Virus record (IMG/VR): IMGVR_UViG_3300021197_001722
DNA from: an uncultured virus (IMG/VR IMGVR_UViG_3300021197_001722)
Lineage: Duplodnaviria > Heunggongvirae > Uroviricota > Caudoviricetes
Reading direction: 5' to 3' (one strand)
DNA length: 64,000 nucleotides
The position numbers and the translations under genes were made by a program. The notes under the pieces are model-generated. The model did no database searches. It worked only from the letters and a program-made list of their open reading frames with translations, and was not told the origin of the DNA. Below, one piece after another: positions 3,266 through 13,672 of the stretch (its first letter is position 1; each line of letters opens with the position of its first letter).

Positions 3266-3935
3266 AGTTATATTCTTAGAAACACCAAAAACAGGAACGA
3301 GTTTTATAAGACACCACTTGTATGATTACAAATCTGATAATTTTCTTATTAATCCTCCTTGGACTCATAGACACGCTGGTATAGAAATTTGCTCACGCAT
3401 TTACGATTTAGACCCAAAAGATTTTGATATTCACTGTTTTACAAGACATCCAGAAGATTGGCTAATATCAGAATTTTTAGAATTTACAAACAATCATCTA
3501 AAGCCATATTTAAATGGGCGCGGAGGTGAGCGGCAAAGAAAATATGTTAGTTATCGTCACGATTTCTGGCCCGGTGGAGATCCGTTCGATTTAAATACTT
3601 ATCTAGACACATTTCTTACAGATGACGAATATAAAATTCCAATGAAAAGACAAGTAGAGTTAGGATCAATGTGGAAACCTAGCGTTGAATATTATGAAGA
3701 ATTAGATCCAAATAAGATTCACATACATAAATACGAAGATTTTAAAAACTCTATAGAGAAACTGTTTACTGCTTTTAAAAAACCCATACCAGATTGCGAT
3801 CAAATAATTCACAAGACGAATACTAAAAAACCATTTTCAAATAGACAAAATAGAAGTCGTATAAACAGAATTTTTGATAGCGACTTTAAACAGTTTGGAT
3901 ATCAAAAAAGAACGGTTATGGCATTAAATGAGTAA
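3243..3935 (+). CDS. Sulfotransferase family 2 protein
   Basis: 5'-PSB-like motif PKTGTS and 3'-PB-like motif RHPEDWLIS. Likely start is ATG 3243 rather than 3186. Confidence 0.75.
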   Translation: MIIDKINKVIFLETPKTGTSFIRHHLYDYKSDNFLINPPWTHRHAGIEICSRIYDLDPKDFDIHCFTRHPEDWLISEFLEFTNNHLKPYLNGRGGERQRKYVSYRHDFWPGGDPFDLNTYLDTFLTDDEYKIPMKRQVELGSMWKPSVEYYEELDPNKIHIHKYEDFKNSIEKLFTAFKKPIPDCDQIIHKTNTKKPFSNRQNRSRINRIFDSDFKQFGYQKRTVMALNE

Positions 3936-5031
3936 AGCAGATTATCTAATTGTTGGTGCAGGTCTTTACGGCGCTACGTTTGCTAAAATGATGGATTACG
4001 CCGGAAAGAAGTGTATCGTTATTGACAAGAGAAGTCATATAGCTGGTAATTGCTATACCAAAAAAAAGAACGGTATAGAGGTACACCAATACGGACCTCA
4101 TATATTTCACACCAACAACGAAGTTGTGTGGGAGTTTGTAAATAGATTTAGTAAATTCAATAGATATACCCATAAGGTTAAGGCAAACTATAAGCACAAC
4201 CTCTACTCCATGCCTATAAATTTAAATACATTTAATGACATGTGGGGTATTACCTGCCCACAAGTAGCCTTAGAGAAAATATCTAGAATAAAAAAAGAGC
4301 ATCTAGTTAGTGAAAATCTAGAAGATTGGTGTATTGCAGAGATCGGAGAAGAGCTTTACAGGAAATTAATCTATGGATATACCAAAAAACAGTGGGGTCG
4401 CGAACCAAGAAAGTTGGCGTCGTCAATAATTAAAAGGTTGCCGATAAGATATACATTTGACGATGCGTATTTTAACGATACTTATCAAGGCATACCGGTC
4501 GATGGATATACCTCCATGATTTCTAATATGTTGTATGAGACACCTGTATTTTTGGAAGAGGACTACCTAACAAGAAGAGACTACTGGGATGCAAAAGCTA
4601 AAAAAGTTGTTTATACCGGCGGGCTTGATGAATTCTTTAATTACTGCTATGAACCTCTAGGATGGAGATCGTTGAGGTTTGAACATAAGAACTATTTTAT
4701 ACAGGATTATCAAGGTTTGGCTCAGATAAATTACACACACCCCGATATACCATACACACGCAAAGTGGAGCATAAACATTTTAATTATGACCCAAAAATT
4801 AAAAATACTATAGTAACAACAGAGTATCCAGATAAATGGGAAATTGGAAAAGAAAAATATTATCCAGTTAATGACATTGCTAATAATCAGAAGGCAAAAT
4901 CATACATGAAGAAAATTGATAGACAAAAGTATGTCTTCGGTGGAAGGTTAGCAACATACCGGTATTACGACATGCATCAGGTTATTGCGTCAGCTATGAA
5001 GAGGACTTTAGATGAACTTAGATTTCACTAA
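3928..5031 (+). CDS. glf: UDP-galactopyranose mutase
   Basis: IVGAGLYG, HQYGPHIFHT, YTKKQWG, YQGIP and GRLATYRYYDMHQVI motifs. Confidence 0.95.
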   Translation: MSKADYLIVGAGLYGATFAKMMDYAGKKCIVIDKRSHIAGNCYTKKKNGIEVHQYGPHIFHTNNEVVWEFVNRFSKFNRYTHKVKANYKHNLYSMPINLNTFNDMWGITCPQVALEKISRIKKEHLVSENLEDWCIAEIGEELYRKLIYGYTKKQWGREPRKLASSIIKRLPIRYTFDDAYFNDTYQGIPVDGYTSMISNMLYETPVFLEEDYLTRRDYWDAKAKKVVYTGGLDEFFNYCYEPLGWRSLRFEHKNYFIQDYQGLAQINYTHPDIPYTRKVEHKHFNYDPKIKNTIVTTEYPDKWEIGKEKYYPVNDIANNQKAKSYMKKIDRQKYVFGGRLATYRYYDMHQVIASAMKRTLDELRFH

Positions 5032-6061
5032 ATGTAACTGCAACGGCGCTGGATTTTGTGAGATATACCAAAGGGAGATGGACGCCGCCGGAATAAAGTG
5101 GTGTAAGCACACAACAGAAGAAAAAAGAAAACGGTACGCAAAAGCGAACAGGAGTAATTTTGTAGAACAAGAAGAAGTGCTACATACTGAAGAAAACTCA
5201 TCTATAAAATATATAACAAACAAAAATTTGATTGATGCAAGTCTTGATCTTTGTGAAATCGCCAGCAAGTTTGACGGCATAGTTGGTGTGCCTAGATCTG
5301 GAATGGTTCCTGCGTCAGTAATCGCAACCCATATAAATAAACCTTTATTTTCTATACATGAAAACGAAATAGTTATTTTAACCTACGCCTCAGACTACGG
5401 AGGAAGCAGGATGAAATACTATAAAAAATATAACAGTTACGATAAATTCAAAAACCTACTGTTTGTAGACGATACTAGTTGCAGCGGAAGGACCGTTAAA
5501 GCTATAAAAAAAACCTTTGGCGAGAATATTAAATTTGCTTCTATATTCTCAACGGAAGTTTCTTCTAATTTGGTTAATTATTATTCTAAACAATTAGAAC
5601 TACCTCACATACTGGAATGGAATTTTTTCAACTCTGGTTACTGTGGGACCACATGTTTTGATATTGACGGTATTTTCTGTAATGATGTACCTTTAGATGT
5701 GTGCAAAGATGAAAAACTCTATATAGAATACATAAAAAAAACACAACCATATCAACAAAGAATACCAAAACTTTTTAAAGCAAAGGCACTAGTCACCGGA
5801 AGACTGGAAAAATTTAGAGAAGAAACAGAATTTTGGTTGAAAAAGCATGGATTTAATTATGAACATTTGATAATGTTTCCTACGGAACGGGAATCAGAAA
5901 GAGATAAAAATCATTACGAAGTTGTAGGCAAGTACAAGTCAGAGATATTTAAAAAATTTAATTGTAATTTTTTTGTAGAAAGCTCTGAAGAAGAAGCAAA
6001 GTACATCAAGCACTTTTTAGGAAAAACTGTTATCCTTCCTAATCAAGAAATTGTGTTATAA
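5012..6061 (+). CDS. Type I phosphoribosyltransferase fused to a C-terminal HAD-family phosphatase
   Basis: VGVPRSG and the PRPP-binding motif LFVDDTSCSGRT; then FDIDG (HAD motif I), VTGR and FFVES. Cys-rich N-terminus. Confidence 0.75.
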   Translation: MNLDFTKCNCNGAGFCEIYQREMDAAGIKWCKHTTEEKRKRYAKANRSNFVEQEEVLHTEENSSIKYITNKNLIDASLDLCEIASKFDGIVGVPRSGMVPASVIATHINKPLFSIHENEIVILTYASDYGGSRMKYYKKYNSYDKFKNLLFVDDTSCSGRTVKAIKKTFGENIKFASIFSTEVSSNLVNYYSKQLELPHILEWNFFNSGYCGTTCFDIDGIFCNDVPLDVCKDEKLYIEYIKKTQPYQQRIPKLFKAKALVTGRLEKFREETEFWLKKHGFNYEHLIMFPTERESERDKNHYEVVGKYKSEIFKKFNCNFFVESSEEEAKYIKHFLGKTVILPNQEIVL

Positions 6062-6072
6062 AAAATTTTAAC

Positions 6073-6101
6073 TTGAAAATATAGCAAAACAACGCTATAA
6101 T
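6073..6101 (+). promoter_or_regulatory. Sigma70-type promoter upstream of dnaE-N
   Basis: TTGAAA (6073-6078), 17-bp spacer, TATAAT (6096-6101). AGGAG RBS at 6121-6125. Confidence 0.8.
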
Positions 6102-6128
6102 ACATTGAAACCATATTGAAAGGAGATA

Positions 6129-7769
6129 TTGATGAACTGGTTCCCGCTGTGTAATTATACTCATTATTCGTTGTTAAAGGGTTACTCTAAGCCCAAAGAA
6201 CTCGCTAAAAAGTGTGCAAGCAATAACTTTCGCGCTTGCGGTATAGCCGATTATAAAACTATATCTGGCGCGGTATCTTTTTACCAAGCCTGTGTTGCTA
6301 ACGACATCAAGCCAATTATTGGATGCACGTTTGACGGTTTTACGTTGTTCGCAAAGAACCAAGCTGGCTGGTTTGAGCTAATTAAGATCGTTTCGCTTCT
6401 TGATGATGAGGGCAACTACAATAGTGGGGATCTATCTAAAATCTGTCAGAACGGCAATCTCATTGTCCTAGCTGAATCCGCGACTAAATCTCCAGTTAAG
6501 ACAGGTTGGTACGAGAAGGGTAGATGTTTTCAGAATCTACACTACACAGAAAAAGAAGATGCCAACCTACATAGAATTCTTCTGTGTTCAGATATGAAAA
6601 CTACAATACCTAAGCTGAGAAAGAAATATGCAAAGGGCGAAGACTTTGATAACAAGCAGTTTTTTGATTTCTCACACTTCTTTGTGCCAGACCGTTACGG
6701 TGCAAGTGAAATATGTATAGAAGATCCTCAAGGTCTTCAAGACTTAGATGAGATATACAATCAATGTGAATTCTACGATATACTAAGTTCTCCGCAACTA
6801 CCCAGATTTTCTACACCTAAAGGTAAATCTGAAACGCAGTATCTTACTGAGCTTGCCAGACAAGGCTGGAAAGACAAGTTAGGACACATCAAAAAAAGTA
6901 ATAAACTCTGGAAGACTTATGGAGACAGATTTAAAAAAGAGTTTGACGTTATTAAAGGCGCAAAGCTTTCTGGTTATTTTTTAATTGTTCAAGATATAAT
7001 ACAGTATGCTAAAGACCAAGGGTGGATGGTTGGTCCGGGTCGTGGTTCCGCTGCGGGTTGTCTTATCTCTTACTTGATTGGAATTACAGAGGTTGATCCT
7101 ATAGAGTTTGATCTACTGTTTGAAAGATTTTACAATTCAGGTAGGAATACAAAAGACAATATCTCTTTACCTGATATTGACATTGACATCCCCGGAAAAA
7201 AACGCGATCAAATTATTGACTACATCAAAAAAAAGTATGGATATGCGAATGTTAGTCAGATGGTTACGTTTGGTAGACTTCAAGGTAGAAGTGCAATGAA
7301 AGAAGTGCTGCGCGTCAATGAGGCTTGTGGTTTTAGCGTTATGAATGAAATCACAAAGTACATTCCAGACGAAGCTGCAATATCTGACCAACTCTCACAA
7401 ATGGATGATGAAGATAGGTCTATTATTCGATGGGCTTTGCAAAACAATAGCAAAGAACTTTACGATTATTGTTACATCAACGACAAAGGGTATCTAGAAG
7501 GTGATTACGCTGAGTACTTTGAGCAAGCAATTAAAATTGAAGGAACGCTCAAAACTCAGGGTAAACACGCTGCTGGTGTCGTGATTTCCGCCAAACCTTT
7601 AGCGGAGGTATGCCCAATGGTACATTCTAAAAGTAGCGATGAAAAGATTGCTGGTCTTGAAATGGCAGACTTAGAAGCTCTTGGTCACGTTAAGTTTGAT
7701 GTCTTGGCGATTAATCTTCTTGACAAACTCATGTATATAAATAAACTAGTAGGAGAAACTAATGAATAG
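6129..7769 (+). CDS. dnaE: DNA polymerase III alpha, N-terminal part (degenerate PHP plus palm/thumb)
   Basis: YSLL, KPIIG, GYFLIVQD, VGPGRGSAAG, LLFERF, PDIDID, GKHAAGVVIS and VKFD motifs. Start is TTG 6129 or ATG 6132. Confidence 0.95.
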   Translation: MMNWFPLCNYTHYSLLKGYSKPKELAKKCASNNFRACGIADYKTISGAVSFYQACVANDIKPIIGCTFDGFTLFAKNQAGWFELIKIVSLLDDEGNYNSGDLSKICQNGNLIVLAESATKSPVKTGWYEKGRCFQNLHYTEKEDANLHRILLCSDMKTTIPKLRKKYAKGEDFDNKQFFDFSHFFVPDRYGASEICIEDPQGLQDLDEIYNQCEFYDILSSPQLPRFSTPKGKSETQYLTELARQGWKDKLGHIKKSNKLWKTYGDRFKKEFDVIKGAKLSGYFLIVQDIIQYAKDQGWMVGPGRGSAAGCLISYLIGITEVDPIEFDLLFERFYNSGRNTKDNISLPDIDIDIPGKKRDQIIDYIKKKYGYANVSQMVTFGRLQGRSAMKEVLRVNEACGFSVMNEITKYIPDEAAISDQLSQMDDEDRSIIRWALQNNSKELYDYCYINDKGYLEGDYAEYFEQAIKIEGTLKTQGKHAAGVVISAKPLAEVCPMVHSKSSDEKIAGLEMADLEALGHVKFDVLAINLLDKLMYINKLVGETNE

Positions 7770-8436
7770 AGATATTATCGTCTTTGACTTTGAAACTGGT
7801 GGTAGAGATCCTTGGACTTGCCAACCAACTCAACTTGCGGCTTTAGCTCTTGATGGTAGAAGTTTAAAATTAAAAGGAACTTTTAACAGTGAAATCTGGG
7901 CGGAGACTGATGACGACAAGGCAGAAAAGAAAGGGCTTGGACCAATAGAAGATGGCGCTTTGAAAGTTACTGGCAAAACAAGAGCCGGTATAGCCAAAGC
8001 CCCAAAACCTAAAACTGTTTGGAAAAAGTTTTGCGCATTTGTTGATAAATACAACTGGAAAGGTACGCCGTTCTTCGCGCCAATCCCTGCCGGTTACAAT
8101 ATCCTTGGATATGATATGATTATCATTGATAGATTATGTAAAGAGTATGGACCTTGGGATGAAACTCGCAACAAGCAAAAGATATTTAGTGCAATTAATA
8201 AAATTGATATGATGGATAATTATTGGATGTGGACAGAGGGCGATCCTAGCATCAAGACTCGTAGTATGGATAGTATCCGAGAAAGAATGGGGATGTCGTC
8301 AGAGAACGCGCATGACGCTCTACAAGACGTTAAAGATACTGCTAATCTAATGATTAAGTTCATGAAGACGCATCGTGCTGTATATAGAAACTTGAAACTT
8401 GAGAAAGCATTTGCAGATGGAAACACATACGTTTAA
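7762..8436 (+). CDS. DEDDh 3'-5' exonuclease (DnaQ/epsilon-like)
   Basis: ExoI VFDFETGG, ExoII GYNILGYD and ExoIII AHDALQD motifs. Confidence 0.9.
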   Translation: MNRDIIVFDFETGGRDPWTCQPTQLAALALDGRSLKLKGTFNSEIWAETDDDKAEKKGLGPIEDGALKVTGKTRAGIAKAPKPKTVWKKFCAFVDKYNWKGTPFFAPIPAGYNILGYDMIIIDRLCKEYGPWDETRNKQKIFSAINKIDMMDNYWMWTEGDPSIKTRSMDSIRERMGMSSENAHDALQDVKDTANLMIKFMKTHRAVYRNLKLEKAFADGNTYV

Positions 8437-8800
8437 AAAGTGTTGCAAATGTAACCAAAATTTGCCGGTAGAAAATTTTAGCAAGTGCAGCGGTGGAAAT
8501 TATTTACGACCAGAATGTAGAAAGTGCAACTATAAACTTTCTAAAGAAAGAAAAGAGCTTAGAGAAGCTTATGGATCTCCACCAGAAGGTTATGTTTGCC
8601 CAATATGTCAAAGAACTTCTGAGGACTGTAAAGGTGAGGGTGGAAGAAAAACATCTACTTGGGTTGTAGATCATTGCCACACTAAGAATAAATTTAGAGG
8701 ATGGCTCTGCCACAAGTGTAATAGAGGAATCGGCGCATTTACTGATTCGGTTGAAATTTTAGAAAGAGCTATAAAATATTTGAGAGAAACTAATGATTGA
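8417..8800 (+). CDS. Endonuclease VII-family (His-Me) nuclease with an N-terminal Zn finger
   Basis: CxxC pairs; CPIC...VVDHCH...RGWLCHKCNRGIG...AIKYL. Likely start is ATG 8417. Confidence 0.9.
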   Translation: METHTFKKCCKCNQNLPVENFSKCSGGNYLRPECRKCNYKLSKERKELREAYGSPPEGYVCPICQRTSEDCKGEGGRKTSTWVVDHCHTKNKFRGWLCHKCNRGIGAFTDSVEILERAIKYLRETND

Positions 8801-10319
8801 TTATAATGATGAAAAAACTTGGAATCTCTTCAAGGAGGGCAGAACCAAAGGTGTTTTTCAGTTAGAGAGTAACCTTGGTCGCGCTTGGTCTAAAAGACTC
8901 CAACCTACAAACATTGAAGAGTTAGGCGCATTGATTGCGCTAATTAGGCCGGGATCACTCAAAGCAGTGACTGACGGTAAATCAATGACTCAGCACTACG
9001 TTGATAGAAAGTTGGGTGTAGATGCCGTCAAGTATCTTCACGAATCTCTAACTGATACGTTGAAGCAAACCAAAGGTGTTCTAATCTATCAAGAACAGTC
9101 TATGCGTATTGCCCAAGAGCTTGCGGGTTTCAACCTACAGGAAGCAGACGTGCTTCGTAAAGCAATTGGAAAGAAGAAAGCAGACCTTATGGCTAAAGTT
9201 AGAAAAGACTTCTTAGAGGGCTGCACAGAGCAGGGTATTGTAAATACAGCTACCGCTGAAGAAATTTTTGGTTGGATTGAGAAATCATCACGATACTCAT
9301 TTAACAAGTCTCATGCGATTTGCTACGCTATCAACTCCTACAAGAGTGCTTGGTATAAAGCTAATCATACAAAAGAGTTCTTTTTGTCATACCTGACCTA
9401 TGCGAATGAAAAACAAGATCCTCACCAAGAAGTGTACGAGCTTGTATCCGATGCTAAGATGTCAGATATATCCGTTAAACTACCTACGCTTAACAAGTGG
9501 CAAAATCATTTCTTTGCTGAGAAAAACAATATCTACTTTGGTATAAAAGATATTAAATCTTTAACAGGTGTCAATGGCGACAAAGTTATTAAAGCTATAA
9601 AAGAATCTCCAAAAGTAAAAAAATGGTTAGATGTATTGATACACCTATCCCCAAACATGAACTCTACAGGTTTTAAAGCTCTTTGCTCTATTGGGTTTTT
9701 CTCTACTCGGCAGACTGGCGTGAGTAGAAACAAGGCGCTATATGAGTATCTTATCTTTAGAAATTTGACTAAAGCTGAGTTAAAATGGGTAACTGAAAAC
9801 TATAAGATTAAGAAGTGGAAAACTCTAACTGAGTGTTTTACTGATTTAGCACCAACCAAAAAAGAGGGTGGAGGAACCAGTAAAGTAGACAGAAAACAAA
9901 TAATTGAAAATGAAATTCATTTCTTAGAAAACCCGCCGTATGACCTTTCAGATGACCCAGAATGGATAATCGAACAAGAAAAGAAATACCTTGGATGTCC
10001 TGTATCTTTATCCAGAGTGGAATCGGCAGATACTTCTTCTTCAAATACAACCTGTAAAGAAATTATAGATGGTAAAGTTGGCAAGAATATTTGCCTTGTT
10101 GCTCATGTAACCAGACTTGTTAATCATAAGTGTAAAACTGGAGACTTGATGGCATTTCTAACTCTAGAAGATGAGACATGCTGTATTGACAATGTAGTTG
10201 TATTTCCAAAGGTTAGAACAAAATACCAATACGTTCTAGACGAAGATATTAATTTATTGTTTTGCGGGCAGATAGAAAAGACAGGTTCTTTCATTATTGA
10301 TAAAATTCACGAAATATAA
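8793..10319 (+). CDS. dnaE: DNA polymerase III alpha, C-terminal part (fingers, HhH, OB)
   Basis: GVFQLES, ALIRPG, YQEQ, ADVLRKAIGKK, YSFNKSHA, EKKYLG and MAFLTLED motifs. Confidence 0.95.
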   Translation: MIDYNDEKTWNLFKEGRTKGVFQLESNLGRAWSKRLQPTNIEELGALIALIRPGSLKAVTDGKSMTQHYVDRKLGVDAVKYLHESLTDTLKQTKGVLIYQEQSMRIAQELAGFNLQEADVLRKAIGKKKADLMAKVRKDFLEGCTEQGIVNTATAEEIFGWIEKSSRYSFNKSHAICYAINSYKSAWYKANHTKEFFLSYLTYANEKQDPHQEVYELVSDAKMSDISVKLPTLNKWQNHFFAEKNNIYFGIKDIKSLTGVNGDKVIKAIKESPKVKKWLDVLIHLSPNMNSTGFKALCSIGFFSTRQTGVSRNKALYEYLIFRNLTKAELKWVTENYKIKKWKTLTECFTDLAPTKKEGGGTSKVDRKQIIENEIHFLENPPYDLSDDPEWIIEQEKKYLGCPVSLSRVESADTSSSNTTCKEIIDGKVGKNICLVAHVTRLVNHKCKTGDLMAFLTLEDETCCIDNVVVFPKVRTKYQYVLDEDINLLFCGQIEKTGSFIIDKIHEI

Positions 10320-10349
10320 TTGACTTTTTTGGCATTTTGATGCTATAAT
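10320..10349 (+). promoter_or_regulatory. Sigma70-type promoter with extended -10, upstream of ssb and the glycosyltransferase operon
   Basis: TTGACT (10320-10325), 18-bp spacer ending in TGC, TATAAT (10344-10349). AGGAG at 10367-10371. Confidence 0.75.
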
Positions 10350-10375
10350 ACAGAGTAATACAAAATAGGAGTAAA

Positions 10376-10699
10376 TTGATGAATAATTGCACCTTTACTG
10401 GGTATCTTTTACACGACCCACAAATAGATAGTGAAGGGGGAGGTACGGCTTGCTGCACCGTAAAGATGGTAACTTATGAATATCGTAAAAACAAACGTGG
10501 GGAAAAGAAGAAGGTTCCAACAACCGTTACGCTACAAGCTTGGGCTAGCGGCGCAGAGACTATTGCCAAACTTGGTAAAAAAGGCACAAAGATGACTGTA
10601 TACGCCTCCGCCAGAAACAGTTTTATGAAGACGGAAGCTAGTGACGATATTATATTTAGAATTAATGAATTTGATTTTGGTTGTCTAGACAAGGAATAA
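10376..10699 (+). CDS. ssb: Single-stranded DNA-binding protein (OB fold only)
   Basis: N..TFTGYL..DP and QAWASGAETIAKLGKKG match the SSB OB fold. It lies directly after dnaE. Confidence 0.75.
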   Translation: MMNNCTFTGYLLHDPQIDSEGGGTACCTVKMVTYEYRKNKRGEKKKVPTTVTLQAWASGAETIAKLGKKGTKMTVYASARNSFMKTEASDDIIFRINEFDFGCLDKE

Positions 10700-10700
10700 A

Positions 10701-12374
10701 ATGAGAAAAAAAAGAATCCTATTTTGTAGTGAGGCTACCTTTTTAAACACAGGGTACGCAACCTATACCAGAGAAATCTTGAACTATCTGTATAGCACAG
10801 GTAAATATGAAATTGCAGAAATGGCATCATACGGAGAAAGAAATGACCCAAGAGCAGTAGACATTCCTTGGAAATACTACGGCGTTATGCCAAATCAAAA
10901 CTGTGAACCTAAAGCTAGCGAAGAAGAAGTAAGAGCTTACAATTCAAATCCAACAAATCAATTCGGCTCTTGGGCTTTTGAGCATGTGTGTTTAGATTTC
11001 TTACCGGATTTTGTTTGTGATATTCGTGACTTTTGGATGCTAGAATTTGCTGAAAGATCCCCTTTTAGAGATTATTTCCGTTGGGTTATAATGCCAACTG
11101 TTGACGCAAGACCACAAGCTCGTCAATGGGTTGCTACTTATGCGGGAGCAGATGCCTGCCTAACATATTCAGACTGGGCTGGCGGTGTTTTAGAAAATCA
11201 ATCTGGAGGAAAGATTAATTATCTAGGCAGCGCTCCTCCTTCTGCACACCCCGCATACAAGCCGGTTGAAGATAAAGTTCTACATAAAATTCAAATGGGT
11301 ATTGATCCTAGCTATAAAGTCATCGGAACGGTAATGCGTAATCAGAGGCGCAAACTGTATCCAGACCTGTTTGAAGCTTTTCGTAAATTTCTAGATACAT
11401 CAGAAGACAAAAAGTATTATCTGTATTGTCATACGTCTTATCCAGATTTAGGTTGGAATATAGATGAGCTTTTGCAAGAGTATAATCTTGCATCACATGT
11501 TTTATTTACATATATTTGTCCAGATACTAAAAAGCCTTTCGTCTCTAAATTTAAAGGCGCTGTGGCACAATCTCCCTTTACAAACAAATGGGGTTCTACA
11601 TTATCTAATGTTAAAAATGGGCTTAGTTACGAAGATCTATCAAGGGTTGTAAATTGCTTTGATCTTTATACTCAGTACGCAAACTGTGAGGGGTTTGGTT
11701 TACCTCAAGTTGAAGCTGCGGCGTGTGGGGTTCCTGTTTGTGGAACTGATTATTCCGCGATGGAAAGTGTTTTGAGGAAGTTGGAGGGATACCCTATCAC
11801 GCCAGCGGCTTTGTATAAAGAACTAGAAACTGGTTGCTTACGAGCAGTACCAGATAACGATGTAGCCTCAAAGTTTTTCTACGACTTTTTCCAGAAAACG
11901 GACGAAGAACGTGCCGAGATGGGAAAGAAAACAAGAGAAGCATTTGATAAATATTATCAATGGCATTTAAGTGGCTCTGTGTGGGAGAAATATTTTGATG
12001 AAACAGATCCTATAAGTTTTGAGATAGGTTGGGGTTCTGCTCCAAAAATTCTACCACCAGCAGAAAAGCAAGACTTAGGACAAGCCCGACATTCTCAAGC
12101 TACTCAGTGGTTGATAGAAAATGTTTTGAGACAACCAGAAAAAGTTAATTCATTTTTAGCTGATAGAATGACAAAAGACTTGTTGTACAAATCTTCTACT
12201 AGTTCTACAGGTGGTATGTATTTCAACGAAAGTAGCGCTGCTTTTGACGGGCAGCAGCACAGAAGTCATTTCGATTTTAATGTTGCATACGACCAAATGA
12301 AGATGCAAAGAGAAAGAATTAATCACTGGGAGCAAGAGAGAATAAACAGAATGAAAGCACTTAATGTACAATAG
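10701..12374 (+). CDS. GT-B (GT4-like) glycosyltransferase
   Basis: TGY near the N-terminus; RNQRRK; EGFGLPQVEAAACGVP. Confidence 0.9.
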   Translation: MRKKRILFCSEATFLNTGYATYTREILNYLYSTGKYEIAEMASYGERNDPRAVDIPWKYYGVMPNQNCEPKASEEEVRAYNSNPTNQFGSWAFEHVCLDFLPDFVCDIRDFWMLEFAERSPFRDYFRWVIMPTVDARPQARQWVATYAGADACLTYSDWAGGVLENQSGGKINYLGSAPPSAHPAYKPVEDKVLHKIQMGIDPSYKVIGTVMRNQRRKLYPDLFEAFRKFLDTSEDKKYYLYCHTSYPDLGWNIDELLQEYNLASHVLFTYICPDTKKPFVSKFKGAVAQSPFTNKWGSTLSNVKNGLSYEDLSRVVNCFDLYTQYANCEGFGLPQVEAAACGVPVCGTDYSAMESVLRKLEGYPITPAALYKELETGCLRAVPDNDVASKFFYDFFQKTDEERAEMGKKTREAFDKYYQWHLSGSVWEKYFDETDPISFEIGWGSAPKILPPAEKQDLGQARHSQATQWLIENVLRQPEKVNSFLADRMTKDLLYKSSTSSTGGMYFNESSAAFDGQQHRSHFDFNVAYDQMKMQRERINHWEQERINRMKALNVQ

Positions 12375-13011
12375 TCAAACAAAACAAGATCTATTTGTCC
12401 ATAAACTATTAAAATATACTGGCGGGTACTTCGTAGATATTGGTGCTGGAACAGGAGGTTTAAGAGGATACCCGGAAGGGTTCTATAGCAATAGCTATTT
12501 CTTTGAGAAGTTTTTGCGTTACGAAGGTATCGCTATCGACTTCGACGAAGAATGGATAAAGGAGGTAGAGAGTTATAGAACTTGCCAGTTAGTTTGCGAA
12601 GACTTGATGGAAGTAAATATAAACGATGTTCTTAACCGGCAAGGATGCCCTTTAGAAATTGATTATTTATCAATAGACGTAGATGATGCACAACTCAAAG
12701 TTTTCACAGAATTTGACTGGAACAAATACAGATTTAAAGTATTGACTCTGGAACATAACTTGTTTCAAGCCCTTCCGGGATGTACTCAGAATCATAGCGA
12801 AGATCACAAACGTAAGATCCTAAGCGAGCATAAGCTCTACAGAGATACACTGAGGGGTCATAACTACCATTTGCTCTGGGGAGACGTGATACTAGATGGC
12901 TACGGACCAGTAGAAGATTGGTGGGTGAGTGAAGATCTTTATGAGAAATATAAGTCTTACGAAAGACACAGTGTAAACTGTAACGAGGTAGTAAATGCTC
13001 TTTTTAGATAA
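12364..13011 (+). CDS. FkbM-like SAM methyltransferase
   Basis: SQTKQD, GYFVDIGA, SNSY.FE, IDYLSIDVD and LEHN motifs. Paralogous to 2000..2503. Confidence 0.75.
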   Translation: MYNSQTKQDLFVHKLLKYTGGYFVDIGAGTGGLRGYPEGFYSNSYFFEKFLRYEGIAIDFDEEWIKEVESYRTCQLVCEDLMEVNINDVLNRQGCPLEIDYLSIDVDDAQLKVFTEFDWNKYRFKVLTLEHNLFQALPGCTQNHSEDHKRKILSEHKLYRDTLRGHNYHLLWGDVILDGYGPVEDWWVSEDLYEKYKSYERHSVNCNEVVNALFR

Positions 13012-13672
13012 AATAAAAGAAAAATATCCAAATCCTAAGAATGTATTTGAAATTGGCGCACATAGAGGATATGATATACCAGAGATAGTAAAAGCTTTTC
13101 CAGAAGCTAATGTTTACGCTTTTGAAGCAGATCCTTATAACTACGATATTTGTGTTGAGAACTGTGCCGAATTTGCTAATGTTCACGTTTATAATCAAGC
13201 TGTGTACAATGCAAACCAAGAAATGACTTTTAATAGGTTTTGCGATATTGAGAATATTCCAGATGAAGAAACGCTTAAAGGTCAAAACCTACAATTCACA
13301 GGTTGTGGTTCGTTACACAAACCCGGAGTTGGATTGACGGAAATTTATAAAATAAAAGATGTTGTAGAAGAAATAAAAGTCCAAGCCGTGACTTTACAGT
13401 ATTTTTGTAATAAAAATAATATTGACTCTATTGATGCTTTGTTTATGGATGTTCAAGGCGCAGAGATGAATGTAATTCAAGGTGCTGGCAACATACTAAT
13501 GTCAACTGTTAAAGCTATCGCATTAGAGTGGTCAACTAACTACACACTCTACGAAAACGAGACTGACTTTATTTACATTAAAAGATATTTAGAAAATGCT
13601 TTAAGATTGGAAGAAGCCCAGAGAGAATACCAGCTACAAGGACTTAATGGAGACTCATTATTTTTGAGGTAA
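12995..13672 (+). CDS. FkbM family methyltransferase
   Basis: FEIGAHRG, YAFEADP and MDVQGAE motifs. Confidence 0.9.
   Translation: MLFLDKIKEKYPNPKNVFEIGAHRGYDIPEIVKAFPEANVYAFEADPYNYDICVENCAEFANVHVYNQAVYNANQEMTFNRFCDIENIPDEETLKGQNLQFTGCGSLHKPGVGLTEIYKIKDVVEEIKVQAVTLQYFCNKNNIDSIDALFMDVQGAEMNVIQGAGNILMSTVKAIALEWSTNYTLYENETDFIYIKRYLENALRLEEAQREYQLQGLNGDSLFLR

Follow-up and report, generated by a model that had tools for sequence, protein, structure and literature searches.

How can a replicative DNA polymerase of the C family be produced if its gene is interrupted, between the palm and the fingers, by the genes of other enzymes? This question is raised by a stretch of 64,000 nucleotides (nt) from an uncultured virus of the Caudoviricetes (IMG/VR record IMGVR_UViG_3300021197_001722), hereafter called the window, to whose whole length all coordinates refer. 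In the module located on the plus strand at 6129-10319, the listing of open reading frames (ORFs) contains four overlapping frames that encode in turn the N-terminal half of DnaE (dnaE-N), an exonuclease (exo), an endonuclease VII (EndoVII)-like protein (e7) and the C-terminal half of DnaE (dnaE-C), the two halves being 1,023 nt apart. A preliminary description of this DNA, made from its letters alone, had proposed a two-chain replicase. This part of the proposal appears to be the best-supported reading in the light of conservation, collinearity and the exclusion of alternatives, but the EndoVII-like gene seems neither to have caused the split nor to belong to the enzyme. With a probability of roughly three in four, the locus would encode a two-chain C-family polymerase that assembles non-covalently, with the exonuclease as its proofreader and the EndoVII gene as a late passenger.

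According to the proposed mechanism, the module would be a replicase operon shared by many uncultured aquatic phages, a large clade in which dnaE has become permanently divided at the linker between palm and fingers. The N chain would comprise the PHP domain, the palm with three catalytic aspartates, and the thumb, and the C chain the fingers, the helix-hairpin-helix (HhH) and the OB region. Each chain would have a start codon of its own, at which translation is coupled to the stop codon of the preceding gene, and the chains would associate without a covalent bond into one active site. The exonuclease between them would most likely proofread in trans, like epsilon of E. coli, the phage PHP domain presumably having lost its HxH metal motif. 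Finally, a promoter-less EndoVII/HNH cassette of ~362 nt may have been inserted after the exo stop codon, where it would have captured the start of the C-half and supplied a new one.

The domain content of the two halves was determined with Pfam profiles. The PHP domain (PF02811, E 3e-18, residues 11-99) and the palm/thumb (PF07733, E 4e-72) were recognised in dnaE-N, and the finger domain (PF17657, E 1e-45) in dnaE-C, where the match begins at profile position 25 of 166. The HhH match of dnaE-C (PF14579) is weak, with 22.3 bits under a cut-off of 25.6, and the OB region was scored by PF01336 in relatives, the window itself aligning weakly to residues 1006-1055 of the E. coli alpha subunit. 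It had been stated in the preliminary description that DnaE stops and resumes about 1 kb later with segments that are adjacent in bacteria, and the alignment to E. coli DnaE proposed there bears this out, as N corresponds to alpha residues 12-566 and C to residues 590-1055 (590-851, then weakly the OB segment). The halves are arranged in the same manner on NCBIfam PRK05673 (positions 206-574 and 587-1049) and on the unsplit relative P0032 of 1102 amino acids (aa) (1-590 and 600-1102). On these alignments, N and C together are exactly collinear with one single-chain DnaE, with nothing missing and nothing added. The N chain stops a few residues past the helix ..LLDKLMYINK and the C chain begins with ..IDYNDEKTW, two points which the unsplit protein joins by a linker of ~9 residues.

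The residues needed for catalysis are distributed between the chains. D349 and D351 align to PDFDVDF of the E. coli protein and D524 to VKFDFL, and the aligned E. coli aspartates are those which we take to be its catalytic triad; all three belong to the N chain and do not vary among 26 sequences. The conserved finger motifs RPG, YQEQ, LRKAIGKK and FNKSH are all located in the C chain. Therefore, neither chain alone would be expected to polymerise. The features of family C, namely PHP, a palm with three aspartates, and fingers/HhH/OB, are present in the module, but they are not carried by one polypeptide. Moreover, the proportion of nonsynonymous differences (pN) between the window and its relatives is 0.06-0.26 versus a saturated synonymous proportion (pS) of 0.70-0.92, alike for N, exo and C, and all three genes are under strong purifying selection.

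The arrangement is shared by a wide circle of relatives. Two sets were compared: a close one of 23 IMG/VR loci with an N-half identity of 59-83%, 22 of which extend past N, and a distant one consisting of the best 80 of 546 confirmed viral stretches obtained by a profile search with diverse C-halves (C-half identity 41-86%), six of the 80 sharing contigs with the close set. The order N, exo, C is found in all 22 close loci that reach past N. All 80 distant loci have exo immediately before C, and in 79 of them N precedes exo. As judged from this comparison, the N-exo-C order is ancestral. The exception is L084, an IMG/VR contig in which exo and dnaE-C are adjacent and no N-half is present within 4.2 kb upstream; its N-half must be elsewhere in the genome or missing, and therefore the halves need not be adjacent. 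The region upstream in L084 contains unrelated, metabolic-looking genes.

Searches of larger collections gave a similar picture. A library of 1.84 billion representatives was found to contain 20,255 matches to the C-half (E <= 0.001), and 145 of the best 150 representatives are stand-alone C-halves with no N-half homology, most of them 500-580 aa long and with the same start point in the finger domain. Stand-alone N-halves of ~540 aa and the exonuclease are also abundant, including in Tara Oceans data; the exonuclease forms 1,150 clusters at E <= 1e-10, and the stand-alone half-proteins number in the thousands. Among 185,579 prokaryote species, represented by one genome each, the exonuclease was found at only four loci (L189-L192), all on contigs of metagenome-assembled genomes, one (152,655 bp) from a SAR202 bin and the other three from Flavobacteriales bins. 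Phage contigs were probably placed there by composition or along with their hosts, which gives a weak hint of the host at most. The cultured phages of INPHARED include no close relative, the best amino-acid identity being ~31% for the halves and 24% for exo. A relative of 162,690 bp (G001), 98% complete by the CheckV estimate, contains one PF07733 match, one RNase_T exonuclease and a DnaB-like helicase, and no PolA, PolB or beta-clamp match. The split DnaE is thus the only polymerase detected in G001, and since a beta-clamp match is missing there, host factors are probably used.

Two side observations concern the more distant relatives. A conserved mini-gene of 71-83 aa lies between dnaE-N and exo in them and is absent from the sub-lineage of the window; it has the motifs ..SV(I/V)FSGC.., ..YQV(W/H)SD.. 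and ..IDDA(V/L)DKF.EL and could encode a small accessory subunit, and in L098 and L115 a different ORF of 60 aa occupies its site. Many distant stand-alone C-halves (P0003, P0006, P0007, P0008, P0010, P0011, P0013, P0016) carry an N-terminal extension of 30-50 residues with a CG..C.F motif pair (CG...CSF, CG...CKF), which the C-half of the window lacks.

The two genes in the break had been named as an exonuclease and an endonuclease VII in the preliminary description, and their Pfam matches, PF00929 and PF02945 (the latter with E 4e-15 and in phrog_2633), agree with these names. The DEDDh residues of the exonuclease, D9, E11, D118, H184 and D189, are invariant in 22 sequences, and with 65-96% identity it is the best conserved of N, exo and C. 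Its PHROG family, phrog_192, carries the label 'DNA polymerase exonuclease subunit'. An HxH motif is the sign of a PHP domain with nuclease activity. The unsplit P0113 and P0134 have it intact (LHAHSD, LHCHSD), and it has degenerated in the clade of the window (CNYTHYS in the window itself) and in P0032, the two groups in which exo was seen beside dnaE. Where dnaE is unsplit, exo is still its neighbour. These comparisons suggest that it is probably the proofreader of the polymerase, acting in trans. The same gene could instead encode an independent nuclease, involved in recombination, degradation of host DNA or counter-defence, that has settled in a permissive junction. Its DEDDh likeness is generic, it is located outside dnaE in the unsplit lineage, where in L141 a methyltransferase-like gene (4333-5004) separates the two, and methyltransferase and HNH genes also settle in these junctions. 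The N/exo junction is indeed a landing site, with FkbM-type methyltransferase genes in L014 (7571-8254) and L020 (6707-7360) and ORFs of 164 aa (L019) and 212 aa (L022) without a Pfam match. Unlike such passengers, however, exo is never missing from its place beside dnaE-C in the 80 loci, and this constancy, together with its conservation, its neighbourhood to the unsplit dnaE, the PHP degeneracy where it is present and its PHROG label, makes an independent role unlikely. A stronger version of the proofreader reading, in which exo would be an obligate structural part docked at the palm/fingers seam and holding both DnaE chains, is speculative and rather doubtful; the enzyme would then be a PolC-like proofreading polymerase in trans, and the order N-exo-C would correspond to an ordered, translation-coupled assembly.

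The interruption might also be removed or bypassed at the level of RNA or the ribosome, by an intron containing the ORFs, by frameshifting or by read-through, which would yield an N-C or N-exo-C fusion. Phage polymerase genes often carry group I introns, dnaE of Bacillus phage vB_BceM_WH1 (L025, LC597490) consists of three coding sequences (CDS) with non-coding gaps of ~720 and ~400 nt that may be introns, and recoding would in principle be possible where stop and start codons overlap. In the window, however, the four genes overlap by 8 nt (N/exo), 20 nt (exo/e7, counted from the ATG at 8417) and 8 nt (e7/C), which upholds the earlier statement that there is no room for an intron. An Rfam scan at E <= 10 detected no intron in 5800-10800, where a chance snoRNA (E 9.1) was the sole match, and nothing was matched in five related loci at E <= 1. 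What separates the halves is a conserved coding gene: in the relatives with the shortest interruption it consists of the exo ORF alone, 672 nt long, overlapping the genes on either side and under strong purifying selection. The spacing of N and exo in relatives ranges from a 14-nt overlap to a 15-nt gap and the frames vary, N and exo being in frame with each other in L016, which argues against programmed recoding. Moreover, contigs assembled from RNA libraries are collinear with the DNA across N/exo (7648-7822) and e7/C (8777-8936) with zero differences, and no joint skipping the insert is present in the contigs of the two metatranscriptome libraries that hold parts of the window. With the N-half of L084 not nearby in addition, a bypass at the RNA or ribosome level can be regarded as very improbable. 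One joint in a DNA run, from 7796 to 9261 (X6), was set aside, having only 23 letters on one side and being likely a cross-organism join.

Ligation of the halves after translation, by an unrecognised split intein or other chemistry, would also give a single-chain DnaE, and in this gene family it has precedents. In cyanobacteria, whose DnaE is split, and in the metagenomic 'fractured' dnaE genes, split inteins rejoin the halves by protein trans-splicing (Dassa et al., 2009, PMC2677866), and the fractured genes resemble the window in comprising two genes with a freestanding endonuclease between the halves. Split inteins occur among the relatives as well, where L020-L022 served as a positive control: at a different break, within the N-half, they contain a canonical split intein between GPGRG and SAAG, with the halves ..GPGRG-CFLPDTRV..TKDHKF.. 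and MKLTKK..GVHN-SAAG and weak Hint matches (L020:3950-6714, L022:6004-7969, and also L021). Between these intein halves lies an ORF of 291 aa, TnsA-like/DUF7487, in L020 and L021, and only 425 nt in L022; this is the layout of the fractured genes. In a Pfam scan of 20 relatives picked for excess length, 12 carried inteins inside the fingers. The palm/fingers break, in contrast, is intein-free. No intein or Hint family of Pfam matched N or C at E <= 0.01. Beyond the homology there are 9-12 residues at the end of N and two at the beginning of C, which leaves no room for an intein part; the N tail lacks an initial Cys/Ser followed by block A, the C-half lacks HN followed by C/S/T, and the tails vary freely among relatives. 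The absence of split-intein ends noted in the preliminary description is thus corroborated, and the ligation of the halves is extremely improbable. The cyanobacterial break maps elsewhere, to approximately residues 135-169 of the C-half (NCBIfam PRK09532, PRK07373). As a side observation, DnaE of L020-L022 consists of three pieces joined by two different principles.

That the interrupted gene is decaying into a pseudogene or results from faulty assembly, in a phage relying on the host replisome, as the missing beta-clamp match might suggest, has a practically negligible chance in view of the purifying selection at saturated synonymous divergence, the invariant catalytic residues and the intact ORFs with coupled starts; an assembly artefact, which the preliminary description had named as refuting its proposal, is excluded because at least half of the sampled window words are present in 16 DNA runs from 7 studies (one run may be the source sample) and the same break and layout recur in 97 distinct viral contigs.

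Several points weigh against the two-chain polymerase with a proofreading exonuclease. The reading is built on conservation, collinearity and the exclusion of alternatives, and the binding of the chains and their joint activity are predicted from it. The RNA evidence consists of assembled contigs, which may include DNA and give no transcript ends, and their uncovered stretches carry no meaning. The completeness of G001 is an estimate, and very divergent polymerases could escape detection in it. As regards the exonuclease, none of the epsilon (dnaQ) models of NCBIfam matched it, the only matches being weak and partial ones to ExoI and to generic 3'-5' exonucleases. By both sequence and fold it is only a generic DEDDh enzyme: its structural model, of moderate confidence (pLDDT 69.8), has ExoI, RNase T, a TREX1 homologue and PolC exo domains as its top Foldseek matches, with TM ~0.6. 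Because this similarity is generic, the assignment as a proofreader rests on gene position and on the degeneracy of PHP.

The history of the EndoVII gene is reflected in loci without it. In the endonuclease-free loci L001, L005, L006, L008, L016 and L019, the C-half begins at an ATG within exo, 20-23 nt from its 3' end (METPIF...), and in the window the equivalent ATG opens the e7 ORF (METHTF...). Homology to the endonuclease-free allele ends at the exo stop at 8436 and resumes at ~8799 (TTATAATGATGAAAA). The insert of ~362 nt (~8437-8798) thus follows right after the exo stop codon and is promoter-less and coupled on both sides; the new ATG of the C-half overlaps the e7 stop codon (..TAATGA..), and the C-half loses ~4 N-terminal residues. 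A survey of related phages for the same break with and without the endoVII gene, suggested in the preliminary description, showed the break in all relatives and an EndoVII-type gene at the exo/C junction in 8 of the 22 close and 10 of the 80 distant loci. The site also accepts other genes, namely an HNH_3 gene of 158 aa with an identical right border in L002-L004 and L007, the same spacing being seen in L009 and L010, and a different ORF of 126 aa in L011. Nothing is present there in 7 of the 22 loci, and other sequence of 310-1040 nt occupies the site in ten more of the 80, three of them on contigs already counted. The nearest homologues of e7 (55-62% identity) were found in 12 viral loci, none of which (0/12) places them near DnaE or exo, and some lie beside PolA-like genes.

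Variation at this site can be seen within one sample. Contigs of an independent seawater metagenome (X1) match the window perfectly over 5800-8422 and 8777-10663 and break at the borders of the cassette (8393-8422 and 8777-8806). Their summed depth is 48-63 in the cassette versus 21-25 in the flanks, a two- to threefold difference, and two variants are present. Membership in the HNH/EndoVII fold family, presence or absence at a fixed site and homologues in other contexts are among the features of freestanding homing endonucleases, and these three were found for e7. By this comparison of loci, the EndoVII gene is a late, dispensable selfish passenger and a predicted homing endonuclease, and neither a subunit nor the cause of the split. 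The parallel with nrdA of phage Aeh1 and its mobE, drawn in the preliminary description, is therefore misleading as to the cause, since the split occurs with exo in all relatives and EndoVII is patchy, swapped and absent from the 98%-complete relative G001; PF02945 gave no match in G001, but the control genomes were silent too, and the absence there is based mainly on the comparison of loci. The cassette illustrates well how a homing endonuclease can enter while translational coupling is kept on both sides, an event of a kind already known.

A 13-mer, GAGAAACTAATGA, is present at both the N/exo (7753-7765) and the e7/C (8784-8796) junctions. Its interpretation as a duplicated scar was dropped, as the cassette of the related L042 ends with the near-identical ..GAGAGAAAATAATGA. 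Judging from this comparison, GAGAAACTAATGA is probably largely the endonuclease's own YLRE.ND-stop terminus plus a coupling signal, and the likeness of the junctions is probably convergent; a copied junction may also be its origin.

Information about the origin of the split comes from relatives with an unbroken gene. In the metagenome loci L141-L143, which are 83% identical to P0032, exo is encoded immediately upstream of a single dnaE ORF of 1103 aa, and ssb and the downstream gene are arranged as in the split loci. This unsplit sister shares 43-45% identity with the window in N, ~40% in C and 51% in exo. Therefore, the enzyme exists as one chain or as two, and the two forms differ in where exo is located. 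P0032 and P0019 nest among split forms in trees of the C-region (FastTree; IQ-TREE in quick mode, SH-aLRT 99); 5 of the 150 rows had too little coverage and were left out, and the smaller tree contains 50 hand-picked rows. A single clade of all unsplit forms was not rejected by the AU test (p = 0.107, for a grouping chosen after seeing the tree), and a claim of re-fusion was dropped, as this result permits one unsplit clade. More speculatively, the lineage may have toggled between one chain and two as exo moved in and out of dnaE. No viral locus was obtained for the unsplit P0113. A further arrangement is seen in Cellulophaga phage phi13:1 (L024, KC821625), where dnaE consists of two adjacent CDS, gp038 and gp039, with 1 nt between them and a break at another position.

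The coordinates of the module and of other features are collected in the table. For dnaE-N the ORF listing gives a TTG start at 6129 (546 aa), and the ATG at 6132 is preferred because AAGGAG lies 8 nt upstream of it; for e7 the listing gives TTG at 8399, and the ATG at 8417 is likelier. Neither promoter-like sites (15 vs 17.0 +/- 3.6 in shuffles) nor terminator-like sites (3 vs 3.3) are enriched.

Table. Coordinates of the genes of the split dnaE module and of other features in the window and in related loci
Feature	Position	Strand	Matches and length
dnaE-N: PHP, palm, thumb	6132-7769	+	PF02811, PF07733; E. coli alpha alignment; 545 aa
DEDDh (RNase T / DnaQ-like) 3'-5' exonuclease	7762-8436	+	PF00929, phrog_192; 224 aa
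EndoVII-type HNH freestanding homing endonuclease gene (e7), predicted	8417-8800	+	PF02945, phrog_2633; 127 aa
dnaE-C: fingers, HhH, OB region	8793-10319	+	PF17657, weak PF14579; 508 aa
Short SSB-like gene, next gene after the module	10376-10699	+	PF00436
UDP-galactopyranose mutase	3928-5031		
Mini-gene	L073:4080-4307		
Mini-gene	L079:4071-4310		
Mini-gene	L103:4075-4290		
Mini-gene	L088:2977-3207		
Mini-gene	L097:4048-4284		
Mini-gene	L078:4059-4310		

In most related loci an SSB-like gene is found after dnaE-C, and it comes after the unsplit dnaE as well. Farther downstream, the window contains a run of sugar-modification genes of ~20 kb (10701-31290), with glycosyltransferases of families 1, 2 and 10, two DegT/DnrJ aminotransferases, an NAD-dependent epimerase/dehydratase and FkbM methyltransferases. 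Two FkbM-type methyltransferase genes of this glycosylation cluster (12364-13672) are like those inserted at the dnaE/exo junctions of relatives, and such small genes seem to move as cassettes too. On the minus strand, 32264-61922 is occupied by giant ORFs of 1441, 1943 and 5592 aa, the first two of which have no Pfam match at E <= 1e-4.

Split replicative polymerases of other kinds are already known. In Aeromonas phages 25 and 44RR, the family-B polymerase is split into gp43A and gp43B, whose chains co-purify and are active (Petrov et al., 2006, as cited in Edgell et al., 2010, PMC2988022), and in phage 25 a freestanding endonuclease gene is located in the gp43 gap and may have invaded a gene that was already split (PMC2988022). 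Both systems are two-gene, intein-free phage replicative polymerases, and phage 25 shares with the window an endonuclease in the gap. However, gp43A/gp43B belongs to family B, occurs in few phages and has no conserved functional gene in its break, whereas the window concerns family C, a conserved exo and a very large clade. Other intein-free split enzymes that work as separate chains are Aeh1 nrdA with mobE and the T4 topoisomerase gene 39/60 with mobA (PMC2988022). The HNH cassettes of T4 and Aeh1 are promoter-less and overlap the upstream ORF by ~20 bp, and e7 is alike in this respect. In these systems the insertion of the endonuclease is thought to have made the split, whereas in the window the endonuclease would have come after it and be dispensable. 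In group 2.2 jumbo phages, a minimal Pol III alpha is encoded as two stand-alone proteins which are proposed to reconstitute the enzyme (Iyer et al., 2021, PMC7824862). That version lacks PHP and other domains, its genes are distant from each other and a family-B polymerase is present alongside; the window, in contrast, encodes a full-length DnaE cut once, with genes that flank exo, and the split DnaE of its clade is the only polymerase detected. In the open full-text literature, subscription journals being outside this scope, no account was found of a DnaE of full length divided at the palm/fingers linker and having exo fixed in the break, and the accessible text of a 2026 survey of bacterial polymerases (PMC12926913) has no wording for such a split.

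Summarizing, C-family replicative polymerases have been treated as single-chain or intein-rejoined enzymes, and the locus described here suggests that in an abundant marine phage lineage the active site would be shared by two polypeptides. The unsplit and split-intein alleles existing in nature allow a direct comparison with the split form. Testable questions are thereby opened about how the palm and fingers of DnaE recognise each other and about the recruitment of proofreading partners by gene position, and sites at which DnaE tolerates a cut are useful for the engineering of split polymerases. In E. coli, the Pol III core contains a single-chain alpha and epsilon, the gene of which is unlinked, and in PolC the exonuclease domain is fused in-frame inside PHP. 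The Pol III core, PolC and the window have in common a C-family polymerase paired with a DEDDh 3'-5' exonuclease, but in the window the exonuclease is a separate gene placed at the boundary between palm and fingers.

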